NCBI GenBank assembly: GCA_030154045.1
Contig: JASKKU010000002.1
Span: 7,663 to 71,662, forward strand
Direction of reading: 5' to 3'
Length of the DNA: 64,000 nt
DNA from: Candidatus Woesearchaeota archaeon
GTDB taxonomy: Archaea > Nanobdellota > Nanobdellia > Woesearchaeales > JASKKU01
The stretch's first letter is position 1. Each line of letters begins with the position of its first letter. Shown here one piece after another: positions 38,879 to 56,548 of the stretch. The position numbers and the translations under genes were made by a program. A model generated the notes under the pieces. It was not told where the DNA came from and searched no databases. It saw only the letters and a program-made list of their open reading frames with translations.

Positions 38879-41800
38879 ATGGGGGGTTTTGGATTTTTTG
38901 GTAGAAAATCTTTGCCGGATTTGGATGAGGAAATTGACTTAGATAAACTGTCTTCTCCAAACGATTCAGAGTTGTTAAATGAACTTAAAAAAGAGTTGGA
39001 AGAATTAAAGAAACAGCAACCGGAAAAACAATCTGCAAAGAAAATAAAAACCTCCAACAAAATAAAAGATTTTAAATCAATCGTTGAGATTGAATATTTC
39101 CTTAAAGAGATTGATGATGCTTTCTTTAAACAAAACATGGATATAATTAAACAAAAGATTATAGAGTTTATAGATAAAGTCCTTCCAGAAACTGCATTAT
39201 CATTTGAAATTTCTTTATTGGGTGATAAAGGGAAGTTGCTCAATAAAATTCATGTTATCAGGGAAGTTTATGGCGACTTAACCTTGGGAAAAAGTAGAAC
39301 TTCAAAATCAGAAGCAAAACAAAAGAAAGAGGCTGTTGAAACAAATCCTAAAGATAATGAAGATAAAAAGCCATCTATTAAGTTTAAAACCGACGAAGAT
39401 GAGAACGCTGTTAATGGTGTAGAAGCTAAAGGTAACATCGATTTTGATAAGCAGGCTGAAGCAATTCACATCTTGCGATTAGTGGACCCAAAAGAAGCAA
39501 TTAAGCTTGATTCAAAGAATATTCGTTCATTAGAAGAATTGAAAAGTTTTATTGAAACATTGCCAGAAAAAAAGTTTAACCTGTTAGTCTTGCCTTTGAA
39601 TCGTAGAAAGAACATTGCCAATTGGATTGAACATGTCATAGGTTACCCTGAGCTTGCTGAGAAATTGATGCTGTGCGAAACTAGAGACGAAATCCATTCA
39701 GTTCTTGATGAAATGTATGAGAGAGTTAAAGACCTTGTTGTTTATGGAAAAATAAATTCCGAGGAAGAAAACGTGAATCTTTTGCCTGATTCTGATTCAA
39801 ACGAGTTAGAAAGTGATAAGCCATCTACAGAGAATACAAACAAGGATTCTGATTTAGACAAAGAATCTCAAAAGAATAACATGAATATTAAAACCCCAAT
39901 TTTAAAATCTGAAAGTAATGCTGAACTTGAAGATGAAAACTTCCAGGAAGTTTCAGAACTTGACCAACAAAACGAGAACAATTTGAGCAGGATCCTTGAG
40001 CAATTGCCTTTGCTTTCAGAGGAACAATTCAAACAGAAACGGCCAGAAATTTTTAATATTTTTTTAAAAAATAAAATATCAAAGAAAGAACTCTTATTAT
40101 TTGTGAAGTGCAAAACCAAAGATGAGTTTGCCCAAACTTTAGAAGAATTTTTGTATTCTAGACCTGAGTTTGAAAATTCTCTTAAAAAACTCACGAAAGA
40201 TGAGACTACTTCCCTAGAAAAAGAATTAAGTTCCATCCTTGCTCTTACACAAATCAAAGAAAGCATTTCAGATGAAGCGCCTATTGAAGAAACAAATCAG
40301 CCTGAAACACAACAAAAAACCAAAAAACGTTCCATCTTCAAATTTGGAACCGAAAAGAAAACTGATGCTGTTGCTTCTAATCAAAAATCTCCTAAATTAA
40401 ATCCTGAACCTCAACTTGATTCCCAACTTGTTCTGCAAGATGACCTAAGCAACATCAAAAGACAAACAACTTTAAATCAAAAAGTAGGCAATAAACAAAA
40501 TCCAAAATTAGAGAACGCTTTTAGTGGTTCAATTAAGAGTTATGATTCAAATACAGCTTCAAGATTGAAAGATGATGAAAACTTCTTTGATTATGTTTCT
40601 CAACTTAAACAAGAGCTTGAAGTAATGAAAGAAAAGAATCTCGATTTGAATGTTTTGCCTCCACCAACCCTTGATGATAAAGCACAGCCTTCACAATTTG
40701 AAAAGGGGTTGTTTGACCTGGTTAAACCAGAGGTCAATGAATCTTTGTTTGATGCAAAAGAACGTTCAGTTGAAAAAATTTCTCAACAAGATACCTTTAC
40801 AAAAACAAAAGACGAGCTTATTAATACTTTAATGAGTGACAAACCTGATACAAAACAGGCTTTTAAAGAACAGAACACACAACAGATAAAAGGTCTTGGT
40901 TTGGATAATATAGGATTTAATCATCAAGCTGAAGAAATTAAAGAGACAGTCAAAATTAATTCTTTGGAGGAATTCGAGAAACAACTTCTTGAGAAAGAAC
41001 GCGAGCTTCTAGAAAAGAAAATTGAACTTCTAAAACGGAAGAGAGAACTTGAGCGCGAGAACTTAAACAAACTTATGCAAAACATCGAGCTCCAAGACGC
41101 TCTTCTAAGCAAACTTTCAGAAGAGAGGCCTTCGATTGAAGATAACTTTGAAACAAAATCTCAAAATCAAGGTTTAAGCAATGAACAAAAGACTAAAACT
41201 TTAGCAGATAATAAGCTTAAAACTCAGTCTTTGTCTATACAAGAAGCACACCAAGGAGCTAAAGTTGTGAAACCAGAAAACTCAAACGAACTTTTCGAAG
41301 TGAAAAAAGCGATTGATGAAATACAAAAAACTGTTAGTGAAATAAACCGAAAATTAACTTCAACAGAAAAAGAGGATTTATTCAATCAAAGCAATGTTAC
41401 CATAAAAACATTTAAAGAAAGTGCTAGAGATACTACAAAAAATAATGAGCAAATCTTAAATAATGCTGATGAGTTTTCTCTTGATGATCTTATATCTCTT
41501 GTTGACAATTTTTTAGGCAGAGATTCTTTTGATGATGCTGAAAAAATTATCATGAAAGCAAGAAACTTAATTAAAAACAATCGAACTTTGAATTCAAAAA
41601 GAGAATCCAATAATAAAACTCTTGCAACAAAAACAACAACTCACCAATTTAAAACAGTAGAAGCATCTTCACAATCTTCCAAAAGTCAAAAGAGTTTAGA
41701 TGCTTTTAAGGTTGGTCAAGAATCTAAAACTCAAGAATCAAAAACAAAAGACAATTCGGAACTAAATTCCAAGACTGAAAATCTAGTACAAGAATCAAGC

Positions 41801-42037
41801 TCACCGAACTTTGATAATATAGAGTCTGTTTCAAAAATCCAAGAAGATGAAGGCCTGAAAGCGGTGTCTAAAATTAATAACCAAGATTTGGCTCAAAATG
41901 TAGATTCTCAAACTTTAAATAAAATCTTGCAAGAAATTGATTTGCACCTGTCTCAAAACAATTTAGATGAAGCAGATAAAATAATTAGAGAAGCAAGCAA
42001 GTTGATTAATGCGAAGGAATCTTTTGAAAGCCATTAA
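38879..42037 (+). CDS. large low-complexity coiled-coil protein (1052 aa), hypothetical
   Basis: It is K/E/Q/N-rich with long heptad-like stretches (KQLLEKERELLEKKIELLKRKRELEREN). No TM helix is seen. The terminal segments are similar (DDAEKIIMKARNLIKNN / DEADKIIREASKLINAK). Confidence 0.45.
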   Translation: MGGFGFFGRKSLPDLDEEIDLDKLSSPNDSELLNELKKELEELKKQQPEKQSAKKIKTSNKIKDFKSIVEIEYFLKEIDDAFFKQNMDIIKQKIIEFIDKVLPETALSFEISLLGDKGKLLNKIHVIREVYGDLTLGKSRTSKSEAKQKKEAVETNPKDNEDKKPSIKFKTDEDENAVNGVEAKGNIDFDKQAEAIHILRLVDPKEAIKLDSKNIRSLEELKSFIETLPEKKFNLLVLPLNRRKNIANWIEHVIGYPELAEKLMLCETRDEIHSVLDEMYERVKDLVVYGKINSEEENVNLLPDSDSNELESDKPSTENTNKDSDLDKESQKNNMNIKTPILKSESNAELEDENFQEVSELDQQNENNLSRILEQLPLLSEEQFKQKRPEIFNIFLKNKISKKELLLFVKCKTKDEFAQTLEEFLYSRPEFENSLKKLTKDETTSLEKELSSILALTQIKESISDEAPIEETNQPETQQKTKKRSIFKFGTEKKTDAVASNQKSPKLNPEPQLDSQLVLQDDLSNIKRQTTLNQKVGNKQNPKLENAFSGSIKSYDSNTASRLKDDENFFDYVSQLKQELEVMKEKNLDLNVLPPPTLDDKAQPSQFEKGLFDLVKPEVNESLFDAKERSVEKISQQDTFTKTKDELINTLMSDKPDTKQAFKEQNTQQIKGLGLDNIGFNHQAEEIKETVKINSLEEFEKQLLEKERELLEKKIELLKRKRELERENLNKLMQNIELQDALLSKLSEERPSIEDNFETKSQNQGLSNEQKTKTLADNKLKTQSLSIQEAHQGAKVVKPENSNELFEVKKAIDEIQKTVSEINRKLTSTEKEDLFNQSNVTIKTFKESARDTTKNNEQILNNADEFSLDDLISLVDNFLGRDSFDDAEKIIMKARNLIKNNRTLNSKRESNNKTLATKTTTHQFKTVEASSQSSKSQKSLDAFKVGQESKTQESKTKDNSELNSKTENLVQESSSPNFDNIESVSKIQEDEGLKAVSKINNQDLAQNVDSQTLNKILQEIDLHLSQNNLDEADKIIREASKLINAKESFESH

Positions 42038-42154: not shown

Positions 42155-45100
42155 TTGGGTCTGATTCAAATGAAACTTTTTGGAAATAAAAAAGTATTCT
42201 TATTCTTTTTGTTAATTTTTATAACACTGCTGTTTTTATTTACCATAATTTCTCAATCTAATTTTGCCGTGGCAGGCTGCTGTTTAAACCCTGATAGCGA
42301 TTACCTCTGCCAAGATGTAAGTGTATCAGATTGTTGTAGTAATGATTATTCCTGTCAACAGACCTATTCTGAGAGCAATTGTGATTCTCTTCCTGAATGT
42401 GAACCTGTTTGTTGTTGTCATTATGATGAAAATGGCGTTGAAAGCTCGGCGGTTGTTCTTAACATCAGTTGTGATGGAAACAAGTTTGCGCTTTCAGGAA
42501 AGTCTTGTTCAGACATTTGTAATGATAACAAACCTGTGCCTGTTAGTGACGATTGTAATTTAAGTACGAACCCGCTTTCAAAAATAAACGTTGATTTTGA
42601 CCTATCAGGATATCCTAGAAAAATACTTTTAAATTGGGAAGATCCCTGTTTTGGCGAAGTCCTTTATTATAATGTTTCTCGTATTGACCTTGAATCCCGG
42701 ACACAAGAGCATTTGGATAACGTTATGCAAACTTCATATACAGATACTACCTTTAATTTTTTAACCAAATATCAATATAACATTACCGCAGTATATTCTA
42801 CCAATAAAGTCTACACAATACTCTCTGATACAATAAATACAGGCAATATTGAATGCTGGATGGCTCCTCCAGGAGCGTTTTGTATAGATTTTCCGTATTA
42901 TCTAAAGTACACGGGTTATTTTGGATATGATAATCAAGAAGCTTTCTCAAATTTTTTACAACAGGAGGGTTATGCTGAGAATTATAATGCTGCGTATAGA
43001 TGCGAAGGTCGGGATCTGAAATTAATACAAGATTGTGGTCGCAGTGGAAAGTTTTGTGTAATAGGAAGTAGTGGCGAACCAATATGCTCTGAAGCTAAGG
43101 ATTGTTCTACATATAATTATGATTTAGGATTAAATCCTGATAAAGAAGACTGTGAAAACAATGCAGGCTGTTATTTTGACTCTGGTGAGGGCTTGGGCGG
43201 CTTATGCTTATCTTGTGATGCTAGTTATTTAGACAGAACTTGCTATTCGTATAGGTCTAAGGAAGCGTGTGAAAAAGATCTATGTAGTTTTGCAGTTTCT
43301 ACAGGTGGGTGCGAATGGGTCTCTTTAAATGATGAATTAGGTTTGGGTGTTTGTATAGATAAATCAAACATCAATTGCAAGGATTGTAATTTATATCTTA
43401 AGGACTTGCCTTATCAGACTTGTGAAGACCTCTATAAAGAGGATAGCAGATTTTCAGGGTGCGCAATTTGTGGAATAATTGATAGTTGCACGCAGTATAA
43501 TAATAGCAACTTATGTATAGGTGGCCAAGAAGCTCAAATTGATTTAACAACACACAAGATTATACCTAGTGCCGACTTCTGTGGTTTAGGTGTCTGCGAT
43601 TATTTTGAGACTGATTCGACATGTGCTAAAAATATTGATTTAGACCCTGATGAAAGGGATTGTAACAAAGGAGGTTCAAATGAGCGGGAGCAATGTGAAA
43701 AAGATATTTTTGTTCCACAAGTTAAGTTAAAACTAGATTTTGACAAAGATGATTTTGAATTAGGCAAGAATATAACATTTATTGTCTCTGATAGACGAGA
43801 ATCAGAGACAGTTAACTTCTTTAGTTCTGGAGAAGTTCTCAGTGATGGCTATGCTCTATATCTTTGTGTAGGCTCTGATTGTTTCACCAAAGACCATTTG
43901 AGTTGGAAATCTTTTGATAAAACTTCTGTTTCATCCTGTGATTTAATCTCAGCAGGGCTAAATGTTCATACTTCTAATCCTCAGACACTATACTATTTTG
44001 TTAAAGACCCTTCAGGCAATGTTGCTGAAGTTCAATCTTTGAATATTGTAATAAATGCAACAAGAGTTTGTAAACCAGGAGATACTAGACCTTGCCCAAA
44101 ACAGCAAGGTGTATGTAATGGTGCTATCCAGCATTGTAATCTTGTTTGTCCCGCAGAGAATATTGGTTTTTATTCAAGGGATTGTTCTTTTGAGGAATAC
44201 TCAGATAATACCAATGGTCCGTACGAAGCTTTTGAAACAACTGTAGACGGTTTAGATAACGACTGTGACGGCTTGATTGATGAAGGTGCTAAGAAAGAAG
44301 TATTGTGTAATGGTATTGATGATAATGGTGATGGTCGAGTTGATGAAGGCTATCCTGATTTTGACGGGGACAACAACCCTGAAATTTGTGATTACAATAA
44401 TTTTGATGTTAGTAAAGATAGTGAGGGTCACATAATACACCATCCAAAAATAAAACAAGGAATTAACTTGACAAAATATGGTTATAGATACAATGCAAAA
44501 TATTGTGGCGCTGATTGTGTTGATTTAGATGCTGATAATGATGCAATTGTTGATTCTACTTCCACAGGCGAACCTATTGATAAAGAGAACACTACAAAAG
44601 TTGGCTGTATAGTTATCACTTCAGGTCCTTTTAAAGGGGTTGCAAAGGATTCAGACCAAGATGGTATTTGTGATGGTCTTGATAACTGCGTTAATGTAAA
44701 CCCTGATTGTGCAGTTGAAGGTTACAATTCTCCAAACAAGGACCTTATAGGATGCCCTGTAGATTGTAAAAGCGAGAGCTGTCTTGGAGAACCATACTGC
44801 CAAGAACAATGCAATTGTGATTCCTGTGCTGATTTTTATGGTATGTCCTCTTGTGATTATGCACACTGCACTTTGGGTTGTGGATGTTATTTTCAAACAG
44901 CAACCACTACATGTATGGATTGCTCTTTTGTGACTTCATGTGAAAAATACAATGATGCGCAAAGTTGCAGGAGCAATTCGTGTCATTTGTTGTCCAAATG
45001 TGAATGGAGTGATAGTATAGGTTGTTATACTGATAATGATAATGATGGGATTCCAGATGATAAAGACCCTTGTCCTTTTGATTCGCAAAATGACGCTGAT

Positions 45101-48100
45101 GGCGATGGTTTTTGCTGGAAGGAATCGAATTCTAATCTAGTTGGGAAGACTGTAGATGTTAATGGTAGAACTTTTGTCTTAAAAGGAGGGTTTGATTGCG
45201 ATGACAATAATGATGAAATTTATCCTAGAACAGACTTTGTTGAAGGTAACGAGTCTTTGTGCGATTTTAAGGATAATGATTGTGATGGCTTAATTGATGA
45301 AGGTTGTCCTTGTGTTAAAGGAGACTTTAGGTCTTGTGGTAATCCGTTTTTAGACTATTCGGAGTTCTCGAAATGTAATCGAGGTATACAATATTGTATT
45401 GATGGGGTTTGGTCTGATAATTGTTCGGGGTTTAAAGGTCCAGAAATTGATAACGAGGCTGAACAAAATTTTAAGAGTACTAAGTATTGTGATGGTTTTG
45501 ATAATGACTGCAATGGTCTTATAGATGATAAATGCCCTTGCTTGCCTGATGAGACGATTCCTTGCGGTACTGATTTGGGCGTATGCAGTTTTGGTTATAG
45601 AAAATGCGGCGATGACTTGAGGTTTGAAGACAAATGTGTTTATACAAACGATTCCCAAAAACCTCAAAAGGAAATCTGTGGTAATTATCTAGATGATGAT
45701 TGTGATGGTTCCATAGATGAAGGTTGTCCATGTGTCGAAGGTCAAACAATGTCTTGTCCTGATTCAACTTCTTTAGTTTTTTCAAACTCTCAGAATGCTT
45801 ATACATCTGTTTTTAACTCGGCATGCAGACAAGGCGTACAAAAATGTATCTCAGGAGTTTGGACTACCTGTGACGGTTTTGTAGGCCCTCAAGTGATGGT
45901 AGAAGACCCTTCAACAAATCCTCAACTGTGCGATTCTAAGGATAATAATTGTGATGGCTTAATTGATGAAGGTTGTAGCTGTTATTCTAATCAGAGCTGT
46001 GCAACCAATTGCGGTTGGGGAACTCAGGAGTGTGAAGCCGGGATTTATTCAGATGAATGTATTGGCGCAAGAGTTCCTTCTGCTGAAAAGTTAGATAATG
46101 TAGATAATGATTGTGATGGTTTGATTGATGAAGGTTTCCCTGAAAAATACTGCGATGGCAGAGATGATGATGGTGACGGTTGGGTTGATGACGGCTGCCC
46201 TGATTTTGATGGGGATAATGACCCAAGGATTTGTGACTTTTCAAATCCTCTACAAGATAAAGAAGGGAAGATTCACTTTAAGACAAAAGACAAGAAGTAT
46301 TACTGTGGCGCAGATGCAATCGATTTAGATAAAGATAATGATGGAGTGTTAGATGATTCAGACAGAGACCCTTCAACTCCTTTAGGATGTGAAGTTAATC
46401 GGGATAATGGGATTGCCATAGACACTGATGGAGACGGTATCTGTGATGGCCTTGATAAATGCCAGGAAAGTTTGCCAGGTTGCCCTGTTTATGGCTATGA
46501 CTCTTCAGATAAGGATGTTATAGGTTGTCCTAAGGACTGCGCAAATTCTAAGTGTATAACTTCAAGTTATTGTAAGTGTCCATCGTGTGATGTTTGTGAG
46601 GAATCTTTCTTAATGCCACAGGGTTGCCAGCCGTTGCAATGCTCTTACTGTGCTATGGGACAGTGCGCAATTTCTGAGGTTGGTGAGTCTGAACAATGTA
46701 CTTCTTGTACAAACATAAAAAGTTGCGAAGGTTATATTACTGAAGAAGATTGTAATCGCAATCCTTGTTTAACAAATGTTTCTTGCGTGTGGAATGGTAC
46801 AAACTGCTTGCTAGATACTGATGGGGATGGTTTAGCAGATAATATTGATCCTTGTCCGCAGGATAAATTGAACGATAACGATGGTGATGGTTATTGTGCA
46901 CACCAAGCAAACGATGACTTTGTAAAAAGAGGGGAATTGTTTGGAGGAAACGATTGCAATGATAATGATGCTAGTATTCACATAGGCTGTGGTTGTATTG
47001 TTGATAAAGACAATGATGGGTATGGTCAAGGTTGCTTATGGGGCCAAGATTGTGATGATACTGATCCAGAAAAAAATACACATTGTGACAACGGTTGTAT
47101 TGAAGATATGGACGGTGATGGCTTTGGTAGAGGTTGCTCAGCAGGCCCTGATTGTGATGACTCTAATGCTACGATAACTAATCAATGTGATCCCAGTGTG
47201 TTTTGTTCAAATGGTTACTTAGATAATGATGAGAGTGATATAGATTGTGGTGGAATTTGCGAGCCTTGTGATGCGGGTAAAAAATGTAAAACTGATTCAG
47301 ATTGTAAATCAAATATTTGTAACCGCGGTTTATGTTATGATGAAGAATTATGCACCAATGGAATAAAAGACGATTTTGAATCGGATGTGGATTGTGGTGG
47401 ACCTTGTAATCTTTGCCAGAATGGACAGAGCTGTATTAGTGATTTAGATTGTAAATCAAACAATTGCGTTAATGGAGTATGTTCAATACCTACTTGCGAT
47501 GATAACAAGAGAAACCAGGATGAAACTGACGTAGATTGTGGAGGGCATATCTGTAAACCTTGCGATATTGGAAAGCATTGCAAAGCAAACAGCGATTGCA
47601 TCTCATCAAAATGCGATCAAGATACTCAAAAATGTATCCCTTCAAAAGAAACTTCGGTAACAAAAAAAGATTCAGATGGAGATGGAATGCCTGATTATTG
47701 GGAATTAAAATATGGTTTGAATCCAAATGATGGCTCTGATGCTGATTTAGATTTAGACAAAGATGGTTTGTTTAATTATAAGGAATACATTCTAAACCTA
47801 GATCCAACAAATCCAGATACTGATGGCGACGGAATTAAAGACGGAAAAGAAGTTGATAAAGGTCTAGACCCAAGAGTTCCAGATAAAAGAGGACCTCTCG
47901 GATTGATTATTTCACTAATAATCTTATTGACTGGTGGCGGCTTAGGTTATGTATATCGGGATAAATTATGGTTCTGGCTTAATAAGTACGGTATTACAGA
48001 TTTTGTCTATAAAGCTCTTAAAAAATCAGGAATTTTAGACTTTGTTTATCTAAAATTGCTCAAAAAGACACCGCCAACGCTTGAAGCAATAAAGAAAGTA

Positions 48101-48328
48101 AAGACTCCAAAAACAACACAAAATATAAACATTAACGAAAAACAAAAAGTGATTAAATCTAAACCTGCTCAAGTAAAACCTGCTCCGATTCAGCCGAAAA
48201 AGCCAAAAGTCTCTGAAAAACTTGAAAAGAAAATTAAAGAAAAGTCCAAGATATTTGACGCTTTTGAAACAGAAGATACTGAAAAAAATAAAAAAGATGA
48301 GGATCTGTTTAAGGAGTTTGAAAAATGA
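42155..48328 (+). CDS. giant cysteine-rich cell-surface protein (2057 aa): signal peptide, MopE-like DNDCDGLIDEG repeats, thrombospondin-type-3-like Ca-binding repeats, C-terminal TM anchor
   Basis: An N-terminal signal/TM sequence (VFLFFLLIFITLLFLF) is followed by a Cys-dense ectodomain. The ectodomain has six DNDCDGLIDEG motifs, D-x-D-x-DG-x-C-D-G-L-D-x-C repeats (DQDGICDGLDNCVNVNPDC), and DSDGDGMPDYWELKYGLNPND..DTDGDGIKDG. A TM helix (LGLIISLIILLTGGGLGYVY) and a K/P-rich tail follow. Confidence 0.7.
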   Translation: MGLIQMKLFGNKKVFLFFLLIFITLLFLFTIISQSNFAVAGCCLNPDSDYLCQDVSVSDCCSNDYSCQQTYSESNCDSLPECEPVCCCHYDENGVESSAVVLNISCDGNKFALSGKSCSDICNDNKPVPVSDDCNLSTNPLSKINVDFDLSGYPRKILLNWEDPCFGEVLYYNVSRIDLESRTQEHLDNVMQTSYTDTTFNFLTKYQYNITAVYSTNKVYTILSDTINTGNIECWMAPPGAFCIDFPYYLKYTGYFGYDNQEAFSNFLQQEGYAENYNAAYRCEGRDLKLIQDCGRSGKFCVIGSSGEPICSEAKDCSTYNYDLGLNPDKEDCENNAGCYFDSGEGLGGLCLSCDASYLDRTCYSYRSKEACEKDLCSFAVSTGGCEWVSLNDELGLGVCIDKSNINCKDCNLYLKDLPYQTCEDLYKEDSRFSGCAICGIIDSCTQYNNSNLCIGGQEAQIDLTTHKIIPSADFCGLGVCDYFETDSTCAKNIDLDPDERDCNKGGSNEREQCEKDIFVPQVKLKLDFDKDDFELGKNITFIVSDRRESETVNFFSSGEVLSDGYALYLCVGSDCFTKDHLSWKSFDKTSVSSCDLISAGLNVHTSNPQTLYYFVKDPSGNVAEVQSLNIVINATRVCKPGDTRPCPKQQGVCNGAIQHCNLVCPAENIGFYSRDCSFEEYSDNTNGPYEAFETTVDGLDNDCDGLIDEGAKKEVLCNGIDDNGDGRVDEGYPDFDGDNNPEICDYNNFDVSKDSEGHIIHHPKIKQGINLTKYGYRYNAKYCGADCVDLDADNDAIVDSTSTGEPIDKENTTKVGCIVITSGPFKGVAKDSDQDGICDGLDNCVNVNPDCAVEGYNSPNKDLIGCPVDCKSESCLGEPYCQEQCNCDSCADFYGMSSCDYAHCTLGCGCYFQTATTTCMDCSFVTSCEKYNDAQSCRSNSCHLLSKCEWSDSIGCYTDNDNDGIPDDKDPCPFDSQNDADGDGFCWKESNSNLVGKTVDVNGRTFVLKGGFDCDDNNDEIYPRTDFVEGNESLCDFKDNDCDGLIDEGCPCVKGDFRSCGNPFLDYSEFSKCNRGIQYCIDGVWSDNCSGFKGPEIDNEAEQNFKSTKYCDGFDNDCNGLIDDKCPCLPDETIPCGTDLGVCSFGYRKCGDDLRFEDKCVYTNDSQKPQKEICGNYLDDDCDGSIDEGCPCVEGQTMSCPDSTSLVFSNSQNAYTSVFNSACRQGVQKCISGVWTTCDGFVGPQVMVEDPSTNPQLCDSKDNNCDGLIDEGCSCYSNQSCATNCGWGTQECEAGIYSDECIGARVPSAEKLDNVDNDCDGLIDEGFPEKYCDGRDDDGDGWVDDGCPDFDGDNDPRICDFSNPLQDKEGKIHFKTKDKKYYCGADAIDLDKDNDGVLDDSDRDPSTPLGCEVNRDNGIAIDTDGDGICDGLDKCQESLPGCPVYGYDSSDKDVIGCPKDCANSKCITSSYCKCPSCDVCEESFLMPQGCQPLQCSYCAMGQCAISEVGESEQCTSCTNIKSCEGYITEEDCNRNPCLTNVSCVWNGTNCLLDTDGDGLADNIDPCPQDKLNDNDGDGYCAHQANDDFVKRGELFGGNDCNDNDASIHIGCGCIVDKDNDGYGQGCLWGQDCDDTDPEKNTHCDNGCIEDMDGDGFGRGCSAGPDCDDSNATITNQCDPSVFCSNGYLDNDESDIDCGGICEPCDAGKKCKTDSDCKSNICNRGLCYDEELCTNGIKDDFESDVDCGGPCNLCQNGQSCISDLDCKSNNCVNGVCSIPTCDDNKRNQDETDVDCGGHICKPCDIGKHCKANSDCISSKCDQDTQKCIPSKETSVTKKDSDGDGMPDYWELKYGLNPNDGSDADLDLDKDGLFNYKEYILNLDPTNPDTDGDGIKDGKEVDKGLDPRVPDKRGPLGLIISLIILLTGGGLGYVYRDKLWFWLNKYGITDFVYKALKKSGILDFVYLKLLKKTPPTLEAIKKVKTPKTTQNININEKQKVIKSKPAQVKPAPIQPKKPKVSEKLEKKIKEKSKIFDAFETEDTEKNKKDEDLFKEFEK
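44305..45115 (+). repeat. internal duplication copy A within the giant surface-protein gene
   Basis: Protein segment CNGIDDNGDGRVDEGYPDFDGDNNPEICDY...DADGDGFC is collinear with segment CDGRDDDGDGWVDDGCPDFDGDNDPRICDF...DNDGDGYC of copy B. Confidence 0.6.
46151..46898 (+). repeat. internal duplication copy B within the giant surface-protein gene
   Basis: See copy A. Shared blocks are YCGADxxDLDxDND, DxDGICDGLDxC, GYxSxxKDxIGCPxDC and DxDPCPxD. Confidence 0.6.
47204..47640 (+). repeat. three tandem ~45-aa Cys-rich repeats (D-x-D-C-G-G-x-C-x-x-C ... S-D-C-x-S-x-x-C)
   Basis: The three units are CSNGYLDNDESDIDCGGICEPCDAGKKCKTDSDCKSNICNRGLC, CTNGIKDDFESDVDCGGPCNLCQNGQSCISDLDCKSNNCVNGVC and CDDNKRNQDETDVDCGGHICKPCDIGKHCKANSDCISSKCDQDTQKC. 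Confidence 0.65.
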
Positions 48329-48780
48329 AAAAGGCAGCAATACAACTAAGTTTTGGATTAGTTCTTACAATACTTATTATCGTTGCAATCTTTTTTGTTG
48401 CACTGAAAGGTATTTCAGTATTGATGTCTAATGTATCTCAAATGCAAAAAGACCAATTTGTTTCTGATCTCACAAGTTTTTACAAGCAAACCCTGAGACT
48501 GCCTTCAGGTTCATCCATTCCAGTTAAAATCAGTTCAAAATTTGATACACTTTGCTTTTATAATAAAAATGGTGATGGTTCTTTAAATAATCTGGCGCCT
48601 TATGAAGATGTTCTCACTATAGAAACAAAAAACGTCTTTGGAATATATCGTGGCAAACTTATTCCATTAACCTCTTTTTCTTTAGCAACTCCAAAAAAAG
48701 AGGTTTGTTTTAATAGAACTACCTCAGGCCTGTTTAATTTCACAATGATTTCAAAAGGCGATAGTATAGACATAAAATGA
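48325..48780 (+). CDS. small secreted/membrane protein with a class III (type IV pilin-like) signal-peptide-like N-terminus
   Basis: The N-terminus is MKKAAIQLSFGLVLTILIIVAIFFVA: a short basic tip, a QLSF motif, then a hydrophobic helix. The start overlaps the stop of the giant gene (ATGA). Confidence 0.4.
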   Translation: MKKAAIQLSFGLVLTILIIVAIFFVALKGISVLMSNVSQMQKDQFVSDLTSFYKQTLRLPSGSSIPVKISSKFDTLCFYNKNGDGSLNNLAPYEDVLTIETKNVFGIYRGKLIPLTSFSLATPKKEVCFNRTTSGLFNFTMISKGDSIDIK

Positions 48781-49811
48781 AATTGTTTAAGAAATCTGCA
48801 TTACAAATCTCATTTAATCTTATTGTATCCATACTTATTGCAATTGTAGTGTTTATTGTAATCTTTAAGACAAGCCAAGTCTTTTTAGATTATGCTCATA
48901 AAAAAGGTTCTTTTGATGCGTTTACTTATCTTGAATTGAATTTAAAGAATCTTTATAGCGAATCCGATTATGTAAAAGCAATAGAATTAGATAAACCAAC
49001 ACAGATCTCAGTTATTTATCCAAACATAGTTATCCCAAGGATTGAAAAAACAATTGATATCAATAATAAACTCATAATTGCACCTGCAAATATGTTCACA
49101 TCATCATTAACTTTGTTCAGCAAGAAATCTGAGTTTCCAATAGATTCCATAAATTATTTGTTTATCTTTCCTAAGGACAAATACTTGTTGCTTTACAATT
49201 CTTCAGATAAGCTAACAGAGATTGTAAACTCAGAGTTGCCTGATAAAATAACCAATTTAGAAAAAAAAGATGAATATTTAATTCATAAATTCATAGTTGA
49301 TAAACCTCTTGAGATTTCCCAGATTTGTGGTAAAAAGGATTACTGCCTCGTGATTGTATTTAACTCCCCTTCAACTTATGATGATTTATTAAATATATTT
49401 AAAGACTATAGGACCCTTGAAATTCTACACGTTTCAGGCAATGAAACTTTTGGTAAAGTAACTTTGGCTTCAGGCCAGAATGTAAGTTACTTCGATAGAT
49501 ATACTTTACTTTCTGCAATAATCAGTAATAATTTTGAGAACTATAATGAATTTATTAAGACTTTAGATAAATATGTTAACTTGACTTTTTTAGTAGAATC
49601 TAAAAGGTTGTCTTATCTGTTTGATTTACAGCCTACTGAATTATGTAAAAATTTAACTCAAGATTTAAACAATACTTTATTTAATATAACAAGACTTATG
49701 AATTCTTTAAGTAATGATATTAACGATAATATTTTTTCAGAACTTCACGGAAATCATTCAAAAGTTTTAGAAATAAATTATAAGCTAAAAGAAAATGATT
49801 GCTACGAATAA
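48777..49811 (+). CDS. pilin-like/N-terminally anchored protein (344 aa)
   Basis: The N-terminus is MKLFKKSALQISFNLIVSILIAIVVFIVIF, the same KK-[AS]A-[IL]Q-[LI]SF pattern as the preceding gene. An ATGA overlap is present. Confidence 0.4.
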   Translation: MKLFKKSALQISFNLIVSILIAIVVFIVIFKTSQVFLDYAHKKGSFDAFTYLELNLKNLYSESDYVKAIELDKPTQISVIYPNIVIPRIEKTIDINNKLIIAPANMFTSSLTLFSKKSEFPIDSINYLFIFPKDKYLLLYNSSDKLTEIVNSELPDKITNLEKKDEYLIHKFIVDKPLEISQICGKKDYCLVIVFNSPSTYDDLLNIFKDYRTLEILHVSGNETFGKVTLASGQNVSYFDRYTLLSAIISNNFENYNEFIKTLDKYVNLTFLVESKRLSYLFDLQPTELCKNLTQDLNNTLFNITRLMNSLSNDINDNIFSELHGNHSKVLEINYKLKENDCYE

Positions 49812-50283
49812 AAGCCAAATAAAAAGCATACAAACATTTTTTTTGGTATTCTTTTTTATAATTATACTTGTAATTATTTTGTTAATTGTTTTTCAGAATA
49901 TTTACTCTTCTAATTTAAAATCGTCCAATGACCTTTTGTCAAAGATGGCTTTACAGAAAGCAATCGCAATTACAAAATTCCCTTTGTTTGTAAATCAAGA
50001 AAATGAGTTTTTTGATATCTATCGAGTTAAAGCTTATCTTGATTTAAAAGAATCTCATCCAGAGCTTGAGTCTTGGTTGGAAGCAAATTTTGGAGACAGC
50101 ATTGTTGAGCTTGTATTGTTAGATGACAGCTTAGACCCTAGAGAAGAATTTTTGATATACAATCACACACCTGTTAATTTTAAAAAGGATGTTGCGTTGA
50201 AATTTCAATTGCCTATTTTAGTATATAATTCGACTCTAAGAAAATCAACTTTAGGTTTGCTTAATATCACGCTTTTTGAGTGA
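49795..50283 (+). CDS. small N-terminally anchored protein (162 aa), possible minor pilin-like
   Basis: The N-terminus is MIATNKSQIKSIQTFFLVFFFIIILVIILLIVF. It overlaps the previous gene by 17 nt. Confidence 0.3.
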   Translation: MIATNKSQIKSIQTFFLVFFFIIILVIILLIVFQNIYSSNLKSSNDLLSKMALQKAIAITKFPLFVNQENEFFDIYRVKAYLDLKESHPELESWLEANFGDSIVELVLLDDSLDPREEFLIYNHTPVNFKKDVALKFQLPILVYNSTLRKSTLGLLNITLFE

Positions 50284-50770
50284 GCATATGCAAAAGAAAG
50301 CGCAATCAGAAATTTTAGGTATTGTGTTTATGATAGTTATAGCTTTAGTTTTAATATTGATCCTTTTATTTTATGGTAATAGACCAACCTTTGATGAGCA
50401 AGGGAATTTAATAATTATAGCCAATCGTTATTATAATACGATATTTTCAGATAATCTTTATACAAACTGTAGCCAAGATATGTCCTTTTTAACACTTTTG
50501 AGATATTATTTTATGGGATTAGTAACAGAATGTGATGATGGCTCTAATGTAGAATCGTTCTTAAACAATTATATAAACAAAACCCTAAGATATTTTTTGG
50601 CGAACAACGGCTTGGCATACAAACTAATCATTTCTGATTCTCACAACAGTTTAAGTTTTGAGAATGGAGTTTGCAACGGTTTTGTTTATTACCTCCCAAC
50701 CCAAACAATACTTAAACCTGACTCAGGCCGCATTAACATTTCTCTTAGCGTTTGTAAGAGAAAAAGATAA
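50276..50770 (+). CDS. small N-terminally anchored protein (164 aa), possible pilin-like
   Basis: The N-terminus is MSEHMQKKAQSEILGIVFMIVIALVLILILLFY. KKAQ|SEIL resembles a prepilin peptidase site. An 8-nt overlap is present. Confidence 0.35.
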   Translation: MSEHMQKKAQSEILGIVFMIVIALVLILILLFYGNRPTFDEQGNLIIIANRYYNTIFSDNLYTNCSQDMSFLTLLRYYFMGLVTECDDGSNVESFLNNYINKTLRYFLANNGLAYKLIISDSHNSLSFENGVCNGFVYYLPTQTILKPDSGRINISLSVCKRKR

Positions 50771-50780
50771 TTAAAAAATT

Positions 50781-51155
50781 TTAGATGTTTTTCAATAATG
50801 ATTCAATTTTTCTGATTTGTGCATCTATGGTTGATAACTCATCATTCCTGATTTCTGTGCTCTCCATCTTTTTATCTGTTTGTCGTTTTTCTGCTTTTGT
50901 TGTTCTAGATAGTGTTATCTTTGATTTAGGCAATAATTCTATAATTGATTTGCCGAGCGAATCAATCGATTTTAGATCATTCTCCAACTTTTTTAAAGCT
51001 TCAATCCTTGATTTGTTTTTGATTTTCTGAACCTGAAGGTCCTTCATTAAAATTAATAGCTCTTTTGCACTTGTCAATAAACTCTTCCTTAGTTCTTTTG
51101 ATTCATAAAGGCCTACATACGTTATTTCTTTGGTTTCAGGCTTATTCTTTGCCAT
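50781..51155 (-). CDS. hypothetical coiled-coil protein (124 aa)
   Basis: The sequence is predominantly heptad-like. It is the third gene of a tightly coupled minus-strand triplet. Confidence 0.3.
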   Translation of the reverse strand: MAKNKPETKEITYVGLYESKELRKSLLTSAKELLILMKDLQVQKIKNKSRIEALKKLENDLKSIDSLGKSIIELLPKSKITLSRTTKAEKRQTDKKMESTEIRNDELSTIDAQIRKIESLLKNI

Positions 51156-51157
51156 CT

Positions 51158-51391
51158 TTACTCCTCATTAGATTGAACTTTAGAGTCTATTGTCTGGACT
51201 AGGTTCTTTAGCTTAGTTAATTGTGATTCGAATGACTCTATCCTTTTCTTTTCCTCTTCGTTTGCTTGTTTGAGTTCTTTGATCAGCCTCTCAGCCAATT
51301 CAACTTTCTCTTTTAGTTCATCAACATTAGCTCTTAATTTCTTGAATTCATCAATCTTCAAAAAAACAGGAAGATTATCCATTATTTTCAC
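51158..51391 (-). CDS. hypothetical small coiled-coil protein (77 aa)
   Basis: It contains KLRANVDELKEKVELAERLIKELKQANEEEKKRIESFESQL. There is a 2-nt gap to the next gene. Confidence 0.3.
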   Translation of the reverse strand: MKIMDNLPVFLKIDEFKKLRANVDELKEKVELAERLIKELKQANEEEKKRIESFESQLTKLKNLVQTIDSKVQSNEE

Positions 51392-52013
51392 CTCGAATTA
51401 TGGCATCACAAGTTATGCTTTTATTAAACATGAAATTTGCATTCTTAGCCAGTTCTTCAACATTGGCTTTGTTTTGTGAAACTAATGACTTGATCTCTTC
51501 ACTATATGTCTTTAAGTATTGATTTATCTCTAGTATTTTGTTAATTTGTTCAGAAAGCCATTGTAAATCCGTTTCTTTTATGAAATGACTGTTCTCTTTT
51601 TGGGAATAAAGTATTATTGAATCACTTGAAATTGTCTTATCTATCTGACTAAGTGGCTTGTTTTCTACTGTTTCATTTTTTGTTTCTTTTAATAAACCAG
51701 AAAAAGGTTCGCTTTCTTGCTCTTTTGTATCTTGTGCTTCAAAACCACTCATAAGCTTGGATTCTAACTCTTTCAGTTCGTTCTCAATGTCTAAATTATT
51801 TGATACTTTAACATTTTCTTGCAAATTGGTATCAGATTTTTCTTGTGAATCTGTTTGTAAATCTTTTTTATCCTCAGAACTCAGCAATTTTTGAGATGAG
51901 CTCTCTTCTTTCTTTTGTTGAGTGCTCTCTAAGCCTTCAGGTTGTGGTGGAGTAGGTGGCTTATCTTCTTTTGATTCTTCTTTCTTTTTCTTCGGTTTGA
52001 ATAAAAAAGCCAT
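51375..52013 (-). CDS. hypothetical acidic protein (212 aa) with a low-complexity N-terminus
   Basis: The N-terminal half is E/K/S/Q-rich. It overlaps the downstream gene by 17 nt. Confidence 0.3.
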   Translation of the reverse strand: MAFLFKPKKKKEESKEDKPPTPPQPEGLESTQQKKEESSSQKLLSSEDKKDLQTDSQEKSDTNLQENVKVSNNLDIENELKELESKLMSGFEAQDTKEQESEPFSGLLKETKNETVENKPLSQIDKTISSDSIILYSQKENSHFIKETDLQWLSEQINKILEINQYLKTYSEEIKSLVSQNKANVEELAKNANFMFNKSITCDAIIRGENNG

Positions 52014-52195: not shown

Positions 52196-54055
52196 ATGAA
52201 TTTAAATCTATTTAAGAAGAGCCTTGTTTTTATTACTTTGTTATTCTGTTTTGCTTTTCTTGTTTTTGCAAATCCTGATTTAAAGATAATTGAAGTAATG
52301 TATAATCCTCCAGGAGATGATTTTTCTAGCGAATTCTTTGAATTGTGCAACTTGGCCAATTTCTCAATTGATTTAACAAATTATAAAATTATAGGTGTCT
52401 CTTTAAATTTAACCAACATTTCAATAAAACCTAAAAAGTGTTTAATCTTCGCGCATTCAAAAAACGATTTTTTCAATATCTATAACCTCTCTTTAAATTA
52501 TTCTAATCAAACATTTGAGTTTAAAGGTTATTTGAAGAACAGTAATTTTTCTTTAATGCTCCTTAATGAAAACAAAACTGTTGTTGACACTTTTACTTAC
52601 GATGGTTCTTTGGCAAACGGAAACGGCTTAAGTTTAAACTTTTGTAATAATTCTATTTTTGAAGAAGAACCTTCGCCTTTTTATTTTGATTTTGAAAGTT
52701 GCATTCTAAATGAAACCACAAATAAAACTTTTTTCGACGAAACCTTGAATGAAACACTGGTAAACCAAACTTTAGAACAAAACAATACGAACTTAAGTAA
52801 TACAACCCAAACTTATCCATATGAAAATTGTTCTAATACAACAAATCAACCAATAAGCATAACAAACTCAAGTACTATCAACATTCATATTGATTCAATT
52901 GATGGCAATTTTGTTTCTTATCAGATTTATTCAAAATGTTCCTACATCTATTGGATTGAAGACTTGTTTCAAAACATAATCAAACCAAAACTTGTTAGCA
53001 ACACAACCACGAAAAAGCAATTTACCTCAAAATATGATAAAGCCTTTTTCATTAAAGCCAAAGAACTCTGCCAAAATCAAACCTCATCTAAATTAGTTCT
53101 ACTAAATACTTCTTTTGACGAAGATTTTGATGTTGAATTTCATAAGTATAAAAGTAATAAAGTTAAAATAACACTATTAGCGGACTACCTCAAGTTTAAT
53201 TCTTCAATATTGTGTTATCTTAATTCAAATAAAGAAATCTTTTCATTTTATTCAGATTCAATAAAACCTCTAACTGATTCAAGTTTGGAATTCCAATTCT
53301 ATATCCCAGAACAATTCCTTAACTCAGGCAATAACAAAATTGAATGCATAATACAAACTTCAAAAGATTCTAGAACTTTTGTAAAGACTTTTGATTATCA
53401 GAAACCTGAATTAAAACAATCATGCACAGCAAAAACATTAAACAAACTCGCGCAGAGTGAAACTTTTAAAATTAATTCGTTTTATACTCTAGACACTTAT
53501 TTGAAATCAAAGAACCATTTCTTTATGTCTGTTGAAAGACCTTCATCAAGCCCAAAACAAGTGTATTTGGAGATCTTTGAATTAAAAAATTCCTCACTTT
53601 TGAATTTAAGTGAGACTAAAATAAAAACTGATTTTTACATTCCTTTGAATAAAACAAATACAACTTTGCTTGCCGTTATTAAACACAACAAGAATATTTT
53701 AACTTACAAAACTTTGAATATCTCGTTACAATTAAAGAAAATCCCTTCAAAAGAATCAAAATCTGAAACTAAAACTCTTAAATTAGAGAATGTTTCGAGA
53801 AACGAACCGTTGAATACTTTACAATTAAATAATACAGTATTCAATCTTAAATTAAATGAAACCAATGAAAGCACTAACTTTAGTGAAAACAACTTTTCAC
53901 AAGATGAAATTACTTCTTTTTTCAGTTATGATACAAATTCGAGTAATGAGTTTAAAACGAAACTTAAAGAAACATTCTTTTATCTTTTTACAACCATCAT
54001 TATATTATTAATTTTACTAACATTCTATTTTGTTAGTAAAAAAAAGAAATCCTAA
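52196..54055 (+). CDS. secreted surface protein with an N-terminal lamin-tail domain (LTD), an N-glycosylation-sequon-rich body and a C-terminal TM anchor
   Basis: A signal peptide (LVFITLLFCFAFLVFA) is followed by the LTD signature LKIIEVMYNPPGDDFSSEFFELCNLANFSIDLTNYKI. More than 20 N-x-S/T sequons are present. The C-terminal TM is FFYLFTTIIILLILLTFYFV followed by KKKKS. Confidence 0.5.
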   Translation: MNLNLFKKSLVFITLLFCFAFLVFANPDLKIIEVMYNPPGDDFSSEFFELCNLANFSIDLTNYKIIGVSLNLTNISIKPKKCLIFAHSKNDFFNIYNLSLNYSNQTFEFKGYLKNSNFSLMLLNENKTVVDTFTYDGSLANGNGLSLNFCNNSIFEEEPSPFYFDFESCILNETTNKTFFDETLNETLVNQTLEQNNTNLSNTTQTYPYENCSNTTNQPISITNSSTINIHIDSIDGNFVSYQIYSKCSYIYWIEDLFQNIIKPKLVSNTTTKKQFTSKYDKAFFIKAKELCQNQTSSKLVLLNTSFDEDFDVEFHKYKSNKVKITLLADYLKFNSSILCYLNSNKEIFSFYSDSIKPLTDSSLEFQFYIPEQFLNSGNNKIECIIQTSKDSRTFVKTFDYQKPELKQSCTAKTLNKLAQSETFKINSFYTLDTYLKSKNHFFMSVERPSSSPKQVYLEIFELKNSSLLNLSETKIKTDFYIPLNKTNTTLLAVIKHNKNILTYKTLNISLQLKKIPSKESKSETKTLKLENVSRNEPLNTLQLNNTVFNLKLNETNESTNFSENNFSQDEITSFFSYDTNSSNEFKTKLKETFFYLFTTIIILLILLTFYFVSKKKKS

Positions 54056-54494: not shown

Positions 54495-56433
<1,939 letters not shown>

Positions 56434-56548
56434 TTTCTCACCTCTTTGTCAACTTTAAATCAACAAAGTCAACTTTAATTAAACAGAAAGCTAAAATGAT
56501 ATTTAAATCTTTCTGTGTTGTTTAGAAACCAAATTAAAAAATTCAAAA

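Follow-up and report, generated by a model that had tools for sequence, protein, structure and literature searches.

What do four short, consecutive genes encode that directly follow the gene of a giant surface protein in a Candidatus Woesearchaeota archaeon? The genes, here called P1 to P4, lie in a stretch of 64,000 nucleotides of contig JASKKU010000002.1 (GenBank assembly GCA_030154045.1, positions 7,663 to 71,662 of the forward strand), which we refer to as the window and whose own numbering is used throughout. An earlier note on this DNA described a quartet of N-terminally anchored proteins, otherwise unrelated, that share a motif resembling archaeal class III signal peptides, and read them as a major pilin with its minor pilins. 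We compared the four proteins with their relatives in public genomes and metagenomes. The interpretation that we favour, with modest confidence, is that P1–P4 are prepilin-like proteins cleaved after K-[A/S] that co-assemble as a complex of the minor-pilin type with the giant protein, the latter acting as an adhesin.

The window has a GC content of ~32% and contains an archaeal RNase P RNA, and exact copies of the product of its 344-amino-acid (aa) open reading frame (ORF) are on deposit as hypothetical proteins in Candidatus Woesearchaeota metagenome-assembled genomes (GenBank MDK2849486.1 and MDN5327800.1; also GCA_018303125.1). A single operon on the + strand comprises the giant gene (2057 aa, 42155–48328) followed by the ORFs of P1 (151 aa, 48325–48780), P2 (344 aa, 48777–49811), P3 (162 aa, 49795–50283) and P4 (164 aa as first called). 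P1–P4 form a translationally coupled operon with the upstream giant gene: the start codon of P1 overlaps the stop codon of the latter (ATGA at 48325–48328), the P1/P2 and P2/P3 ORFs overlap, and P4 begins a few bases after P3. The P4 ORF opens at a TTG (50276), and the ATG at 50288 gives a protein of 160 aa starting with MQKKAQSE. This ATG is most likely the true start (P4 thus extending from 50288 to 50770) because the public gene call uses the same codon and the ortholog begins at the equivalent residue, in its case with a TTG preceded by an AGGTGAT Shine-Dalgarno site. In a second species (loci L003/L004) all five genes recur in unchanged order, and the genes that follow them downstream are the same as well; P1–P4 are 51–60% identical between the two species and all cysteine positions are retained. 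With order and sequence conserved to this extent, the four consecutive ORFs are therefore real genes, and the quartet as such stands. A scan for promoters of the sigma-70 type and for terminators performed no better than on shuffled sequences, the sigma-70 model not being applicable to archaea.

Each of the four proteins starts with a basic leader of 4–7 residues followed by a hydrophobic stretch of 23–26 residues. With an arrow at the predicted cleavage site, which separates positions −1 and +1, the N-termini read MKKA↓AIQLSF in P1, MKLFKKS↓ALQISF in P2, MIATNKS↓QIKSIQTFF in P3 and MQKKA↓QSEILGIVF in P4, so that the +1 residue is Ala in P1 and P2 and Gln in P3 and P4. The class III-like N-terminus of P1 (48325–48405, +) consists of leader residues 1–4, a predicted cut between A4 and A5 and the hydrophobic helix AIQLSFGLVLTILIIVAIFFVAL (residues 5–27). 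That of P2 (48777–48866, +) has leader residues 1–7, the cut predicted at S7/A8 and the helix ALQISFNLIVSILIAIVVFIVIF (residues 8–30). In P3 (49795–49893, +) leader residues 1–7 would be removed between S7 and Q8 to give the mature start QIKSIQTFFLVFFFIIILVIILLIVF, with the helix at residues 8–33, and in P4 (50288–50377, +) leader residues 1–5 would be removed between A5 and Q6 to give QSEILGIVFMIVIALVLILILLFYG, with the helix at residues 6–30. All four proteins thus combine a short charged leader, K/R at −2 in the leader, a residue of the G/A/S set at −1 and a hydrophobic stretch of some 20 residues or more, as class III signals do. The motif KK-[AS]A-[IL]Q-[LI]SF, which had been proposed as the signature of the whole quartet, fits P1 and P2 but neither P3 nor P4; the six-frame translation of the window gives exactly these two matches, and the search for the same motif elsewhere in it was accordingly fruitless. 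The element common to all four proteins is [K/N]K-[A/S] in front of a helix. In the window this pattern exceeds chance. Among the other full-length ORFs only an ABC-2 permease combines [KR][GAS] with a strong N-terminal hydrophobic stretch, and the Sec-type signal peptide of a protein with a lamin-tail domain (LTD) also fits under a more permissive choice of start codons only. The signal peptides of this LTD protein and of the giant protein are visibly different and classical.

A word-indexed search of 5.8 billion proteins returned the window's own clusters plus one ortholog of 52% identity per protein and nothing else, and a scan of representative genomes gave no contig beyond the one already known. 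P2 and its ortholog, used as queries in an exhaustive HMMER search, recovered 19 representatives; 18 of them are 334–384 aa long, with matches that extend along the whole sequence or most of it, the exception being a sequence of 161 aa that matches the N-terminal half only. Each of the neighbourhoods that were looked up contains, in this order, the gene of a very large surface protein, one of ~160–175 aa, the P2 homolog, one of ~155–170 aa and one of ~160–185 aa. A metagenome scan with an alignment of a P2 subgroup added at least 167 further loci, of which we examined 80, calling ORFs in all loci and building iterated profile hidden Markov models (HMMs) for the four families. The resulting set of ~930 kb covers the window and 94 loci (with a few duplicates; 93 distinct records including the window), ~87 of them with P2. 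In the 87 loci with P2, P3 came next in 70 of the 73 whose contig continued, and then P4 in 55 of 63; P1 directly preceded P2 in 63 of 81 loci and was absent from the other 18. Judged from this recurrent gene order, the quartet is the conserved core of a five-gene module (giant gene, P1-P2-P3-P4) that is widespread in metagenomes, the assignment to Woesearchaeota covering the window's own species.

One record among these relatives deserves a separate remark. The nearest ortholog of the entire module lies on contig CAYLQM010000017.1 (L005/L004), whose database entry names an "uncultured Methanosarcinales archaeon". The contig has its gene order (GroEL/GroES, DEAD helicase, CysRS) in common with the Woesearchaeota window, however, and the entry looks like a binning or labelling error.

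The families allowed us to examine the N-terminal signature on a larger scale, in alignments anchored on the K/R-G/A/S site with roughly 40–80 distinct sequences per family. Since ORF calling in the related loci favoured starts that give an N-terminus of [KR][GAS] plus helix, the percentages for −2 and −1 are inflated, and so is the raw number of class III-like ORFs in these loci (554/1041), as is to be kept in mind for the class III site itself, retained in 86–96% of the family members with starts so chosen; positions −3, +1, +3 and +6 are unaffected by the choice of start codon. In the P2 alignment free of this bias, [KR]-[GAS] directly precedes the helix in 20 of 20 sequences, and the N-termini of the P2 homologs run [KR][KR]-[GAS], then x-[IV]-E-[IV]-Q-F-N-W-I-F, then the hydrophobic helix. 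The P1 family, with the consensus KKA↓QI..Q[IFV]FIYIL, has K at −3 in 67%, A (67%), G (16%) or S (16%) at −1 and Q at +1 in 84%, with Glu at +5 in 14% only. P2 family members carry K at −3 in 90%, G (61%), A (31%) or S (8%) at −1, Q at +1 in 36% and E at +3 in 69%, and QFNW at +5 to +8 in ~80–87%. For the P3 family the corresponding values are K at −3 in 61%, A (53%), S (36%) or G (12%) at −1, Q at +1 in 97% and E at +6 in 92%, the P3 of the window having Q at this last position. The P4 family has K at −3 in 80%, S (41%), A (31%) or G (27%) at −1, Q at +1 in 96%, E at +3 in 96% and G at +6 in 94%.

At the level of the families, the N-termini thus read KK-[G/A/S]↓Q. The EppA substrates of Methanococcus have KG↓Q[VLI] or RA↓QI after leaders of 5–13 residues, and Gln at +1 is required (PMC4371748, PMC3875500). 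The alignments therefore support a match between the family N-termini and this class III pattern. The resemblance to signals processed by PibD/FlaK-type enzymes, as initially suggested, gains from the −1/+1 conservation of the families, from the 20 of 20 P2 homologs and from the long helix of P2 described below, although no HMM of a known pilin was matched. Profile-profile comparison found the four families alike in their N-terminal segment only (probability 78–95%), and once the leader and the first 32 mature residues had been removed no similarity between families was left (probability ≤1%). The claim that the proteins are otherwise unrelated was thus borne out, and likeness confined to the N-terminus is the behaviour of pilins. 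Members of the P1 family also score against the iterated P2 profile, with up to ~70 bits, and HHalign aligns P1 residues 4–86 with P2 residues 3–83 at 95% probability. As this alignment reaches beyond the transmembrane (TM) helix, P1 may be a distant paralog of the N-terminal portion of P2.

The remainder of the proteins has features of extracellular domains. Two cysteines are invariant in P1 (C77 and C128, in 42/42 full-length sequences) and two in P2 (C290 and C342, in 72/72), and four are kept in at least 44 of 46 P4 sequences. N-glycosylation sequons occur in P1–P4 at 1.8–2.5 per 100 aa, ~3-fold the median of 0.63 in the other proteins of the window. The invariant, even-numbered cysteines and the dense sequons fit globular domains that face the outside of the cell. 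Type IV pilins are recognised by a long N-terminal helix, hydrophobic in its first half, and a sheet that comes after it. The AlphaFold2 model of P2, built on an alignment of 20 sequences, has good scores (mean predicted local distance difference test, pLDDT, 88.4; predicted template modelling score, pTM, 0.81) and consists of a helix (residues 4–61), beta strands (66–140), an alpha/beta region (145–238) and a three-helix bundle (241–339). P1, modelled from two sequences and with low confidence (pLDDT 51), shows a helix (3–56) and then eight beta strands. The extended N-terminal helix (~30–55 residues in type IV pilins) in front of a beta-rich domain is thus present in P2, where it measures 58 residues, and, in a low-confidence model, in P1. 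As to the pilin-like fold for which the earlier note had proposed a check, P2 has no relative of solved structure, and fold searches gave no convincing pilin match.

The giant protein encoded upstream (42155–48328, +) matches Pfam PF11617 (E 1e-13) and TSP3_bac. Following an N-terminal signal peptide of the Sec type, it has a "GCC.NP" motif (AGCCLNP), MopE-like metal-binding and TSP3 repeats, many repeats of the D-x-DCGG type, a C-terminal TM anchor and a Lys-rich cytoplasmic tail of roughly 200 aa. We considered it as a substrate of the archaeosortase/PGF-CTERM type and rejected this because of the long Lys-rich tail after the TM segment. In 44 of the 66 related loci with any gene upstream of P1/P2, this gene encodes a homolog of the giant protein (phmmer E<1e-5); among the remaining 22, eight lie on the + strand and encode 150 aa or more without giving a match, and 14 are short or on the opposite strand. 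The homologs upstream of the pilin-like genes measure 700–3160 aa and are split into two giant genes in some loci. Conservation is concentrated in a membrane-proximal region (residues ~1660–1936), and the "GCC.NP" motif stands just after the signal peptide in many complete copies.

In long related loci the operon is extended by 5–15 further genes that likewise start with KK[GAS] and a helix, and runs of up to 13 or more consecutive genes with this leader occur. Such extended clusters were seen in L007 (12043–18895) and L013 (12906–21013), and downstream of the P4 homolog in L022, L025, L033 and L034. A recurrent type among the downstream genes, often present in 2–3 copies, encodes Cys-rich proteins of 80–130 aa with the pattern KKG↓QGLSLNTIIIAA..FTGR (also read KKG↓QGLSLNTIIIAAIALIVLVVL..FTGR); the clusters further hold mini-proteins of 45–55 aa, a TPR-containing protein of 418 aa and proteins of 1000–1230 aa. 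No Pfam family was found for the genes of the extended clusters, and one neighbour of 80–130 aa had a sub-threshold match to Flp1_like (E 2e-4). By their size and copy number, the KKG proteins of 80–130 aa are better candidates for a major pilin than P1–P4. The clusters have a further recurrent feature in distant relatives, an RPA-like OB-fold gene of ~330–358 aa at their downstream end (L007 18964–19959, L023 10006–11025, L034 19225–20301, L049 10120–11127, L092 16822–17841 and L094 19219–20202), a marker that suggests an old, conserved chromosomal position.

Which part would the quartet then play? Four pilin-like genes stand in a row in the window, clustered as genes of this kind are. P1–P4 themselves are single-copy genes of 151–344 aa in a fixed order, at variance with the small and often duplicated major pilins, and the window has no short gene of the KKG type (80–130 aa). 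With no such gene in the window and better candidates downstream in the relatives, P1–P4 are read as accessory: they do not look like the bulk subunit of a filament, and all of them look like minor or accessory components. The "major pilin plus minor pilins" of the earlier note had to be given up in this form, as none of the four is major-pilin-like and the candidates are separate genes of 80–130 aa in relatives, none of them in the window.

That idea, in which one member of the quartet, e.g. the 151-aa P1, builds the filament with the remaining three as minor pilins, seems improbable to us. P1 is indeed the smallest of the four and the first gene after the adhesin, and its low-confidence model, a helix followed by beta strands, would suit a filament subunit. 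The shorter, often duplicated genes of 80–130 aa of the KKG↓QGLSLN type in relatives nevertheless fit this role better (the major pilin of Methanococcus has 74 aa; PMC3875500), and P1 behaves like an accessory subunit, occurring once per locus in a fixed order and missing from 18/81 loci. Several observations weigh against a pilin-like nature of the quartet altogether. Neither a secretion ATPase nor a FlaJ/TadC-like platform protein nor an A24 peptidase was detected in the 64-kb window (Pfam on membrane and large proteins) or in the 10 kb beyond its left end. Over the ~930 kb around the ~87 P2 loci, there was no Walker A motif of the form G.[TS]G[SAT]GK[ST]T and no GxGD peptidase motif, a multi-TM scan found almost no multi-pass membrane proteins, and the precomputed Pfam labels pointed to none of the three components either. 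No pilin or class III model of Pfam (E≤1) or NCBIfam (E≤5), Class_IIIsignal/DUF361, Pilin_N/DUF1628 and their NCBIfam equivalents included, matched P1–P4, their orthologs, 20 P2 homologs or the short neighbours, and sequence-profile searches of the PDB with the P4 and P2 families returned noise only, without sequence relatives. Moreover, P1 and P2 of the window have Ala instead of Gln at +1, the −1 residue in the window is Ala or Ser where Gly is canonical, the acidic residue is found at +3 or +6 instead of +5, and the giant protein, anchored by a TM segment of its own, needs no pilus to stay on the cell. The machinery search addressed local linkage, within 10 kb on either side of the ~87 loci, and in Methanococcus and Haloferax it is usual for pilin genes to lie apart from their machinery (PMC3875500, PMC4371748). 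It is worth noting all the same that clusters with as many as 13 or more pilin-like genes have no machinery in their vicinity. The 1052-aa protein encoded upstream of the giant gene was considered as a disguised ATPase and rejected, being of low complexity, with no Walker motif and no Pfam match.

In the main alternative, P1–P4 would be uncleaved signal-anchor proteins of type II that serve the giant protein as chaperones, anchors or assembly factors (e.g. in S-layer attachment) and form no filament. In its favour, pilus machinery and peptidase are missing near any of the ~87 loci, no HMM or fold match to pilins was obtained, the hydrophobic stretch of 23–26 residues is long enough to span the membrane, and the quartet is strictly coupled to a giant protein that anchors itself. 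Such proteins would nonetheless have no need for the small residue at −1, the K/R at −2/−3 and the Gln at +1 that four unrelated families and many neighbouring genes have in common, nor for the charged residue that is conserved at +3 or +6 within the supposed membrane segment, all of which are left unexplained, and we regard this alternative as rather unlikely. A basic n-region followed by a hydrophobic region would also be compatible with Sec-type signal peptides cut by signal peptidase I, the proteins being released or loosely attached. The h-regions of Sec signals typically have 7–15 residues, fewer than the 23–26 found here; the conserved small residue precedes the hydrophobic core instead of following it, and the classical signal peptides of the LTD and giant proteins in the same window are visibly different. 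We thus hold a Sec-type origin of these N-termini to be very improbable.

Under the prepilin interpretation, each of P1–P4 would insert into the membrane with its globular part outside, and a prepilin peptidase encoded elsewhere would trim the leader of 4–7 residues after K-[A/S]. The Gln at +1 in P3, in P4 and in most relatives suggests an enzyme of the EppA/PibD type. The N-terminal helices of the four proteins would then pack together as in type IV filaments, and P1–P4 could act as a priming, tip or stalk complex working with the giant adhesin. Cleavage, assembly of the type IV kind and interaction with the giant protein are what we infer for P1–P4; given their fixed order and their coupling to the gene of a giant surface protein, a minor-pilin-like complex with an adhesin is therefore most likely.

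Archaeal class III and pilin-like proteins as a kind are already known. In the literature that we searched, we found no description of the P1–P4 families, which public models do not cover, of their constant order and strict linkage to a giant Cys-rich protein in many metagenomic lineages, of a motif variant that has Glu at +3/+6, or of a module of this kind set apart from the assembly genes. The four "hypothetical proteins" become in this way a defined module, and the new profile families can serve to annotate archaeal type IV filament genes, with KK[GAS]↓Q and Glu at +3/+6 as a variant of the class III motif. DPANN archaea are mostly obligate episymbionts, and little is known of how they attach to the host. 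Imaging has revealed pili-like appendages on ultrasmall episymbionts (PMC7906910) that have so far not been tied to genes, and the products of the module are candidates for components of a DPANN attachment apparatus. A bolder idea, which we offer as doubtful speculation, is that they belong to an undescribed surface organelle of DPANN-like archaea, in which class III proteins form a stalk or tip that mounts or activates a Cys-rich adhesin of 700–3160 aa for attachment to the host, with type IV machinery acting perhaps in trans. If this were true, the P2 family would represent a new fold among the proteins of type IV filaments.

The other genes of the window include several of interest in their own right. 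The 1052-aa coiled-coil-rich protein mentioned above (38879–42037, +), apparently cytoplasmic, adjoins the giant gene upstream and recurs in the contigs L001/L002 of the same strain. On the opposite strand (50781–52013, −), genes for three small coiled-coil proteins (124, 77 and 212 aa) converge on the end of the pilin-like operon and occupy the same position in L003/L004. Next to them, the 619-aa LTD surface protein (52196–54055, +), with an N-terminal signal peptide and a C-terminal TM anchor, has the highest density of N-glycosylation sequons in the window (35 sequons) and is syntenic in the related species. GroEL/GroES of the bacterial type (Cpn60/Cpn10), likewise syntenic in the related species, are encoded at 54495–56138 (−) and by a gene of 94 aa just upstream (~56158–56442, −). 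At the other end of the window, a membrane protein of 159 aa (1160–1639, −) corresponds to a gene of L095 labelled Peptidase_A8 (LspA, lipoprotein signal peptidase II) by precomputed Pfam; an LspA-type gene is unusual for an archaeon.

Among the known systems with which the module can be compared, the FimU-PilVWX(E) and PilY1 set of the Pseudomonas type IVa pilus and GspH-I-J-K of type II secretion likewise comprise four non-identical pilin-like proteins in one operon. Bacterial sets of minor pilins and pseudopilins are thought to prime assembly and to sit at the tip (PMC3875500). One member is much larger than the others, GspK/PilX in the bacterial sets and P2 in the quartet, and the set is co-encoded with a large adhesin. 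Unlike the bacterial sets, the archaeal module has a giant protein with its own C-terminal anchor and no assembly ATPase nearby, and the parallel with FimU-PilVWX+PilY1 and GspHIJK goes no further than analogy, neither sequence nor fold having been shown to be alike. The bindosome of Sulfolobus resembles the module in using class III leaders to mount surface proteins instead of building a long pilus; its sugar-binding proteins are linked to ABC transporters, whereas Pfam and NCBIfam scans found nothing of that kind here.

Archaeal type IV pilus loci as defined by Makarova et al. (2016) contain 3–5 minor pilins next to S-layer-like proteins or adhesins that are rich in Cys and anchored at the C-terminus (PMC4858521). 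The definition of these loci centred on an ATPase and a TadC gene, neither of which the module has within ~10 kb, and P1–P4 are without a Pfam or NCBIfam model; the loci share with the module the large Cys-rich proteins with a single C-terminal TM segment that stand beside small proteins which are FlaFind-positive or of similar appearance. The Epd pilus of Methanococcus maripaludis (EpdA-E, DUF361 proteins and EppA substrates, "system 1" of the archaeal type IV filaments) has a major pilin of 74 aa, minor pilins of 130–156 aa and larger pilin-like proteins of 200–299 aa (PMC3875500), and there are reports of system 1 from some DPANN (PMC3875500, PMC4371748, bioRxiv 10.64898/2026.04.22.720090). 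In contrast to the Epd proteins, P1–P4 do not match DUF361/Class_IIIsignal, have their acidic residue at +3 (P2, P4) or +6 (P3) and not at +5, often carry Ala or Ser at −1, show no detectable homology in the globular domains and are strictly coupled to a giant Cys-rich protein, and P2, with its ~340 aa and C-terminal helical bundle, has no described counterpart. Both systems nevertheless have short leaders that end in a small residue after K/R, with Gln at +1, mix tiny, mid-sized and larger pilin-like proteins, carry N-glycosylation sequons and keep many of their pilin genes unlinked to the ATPase.

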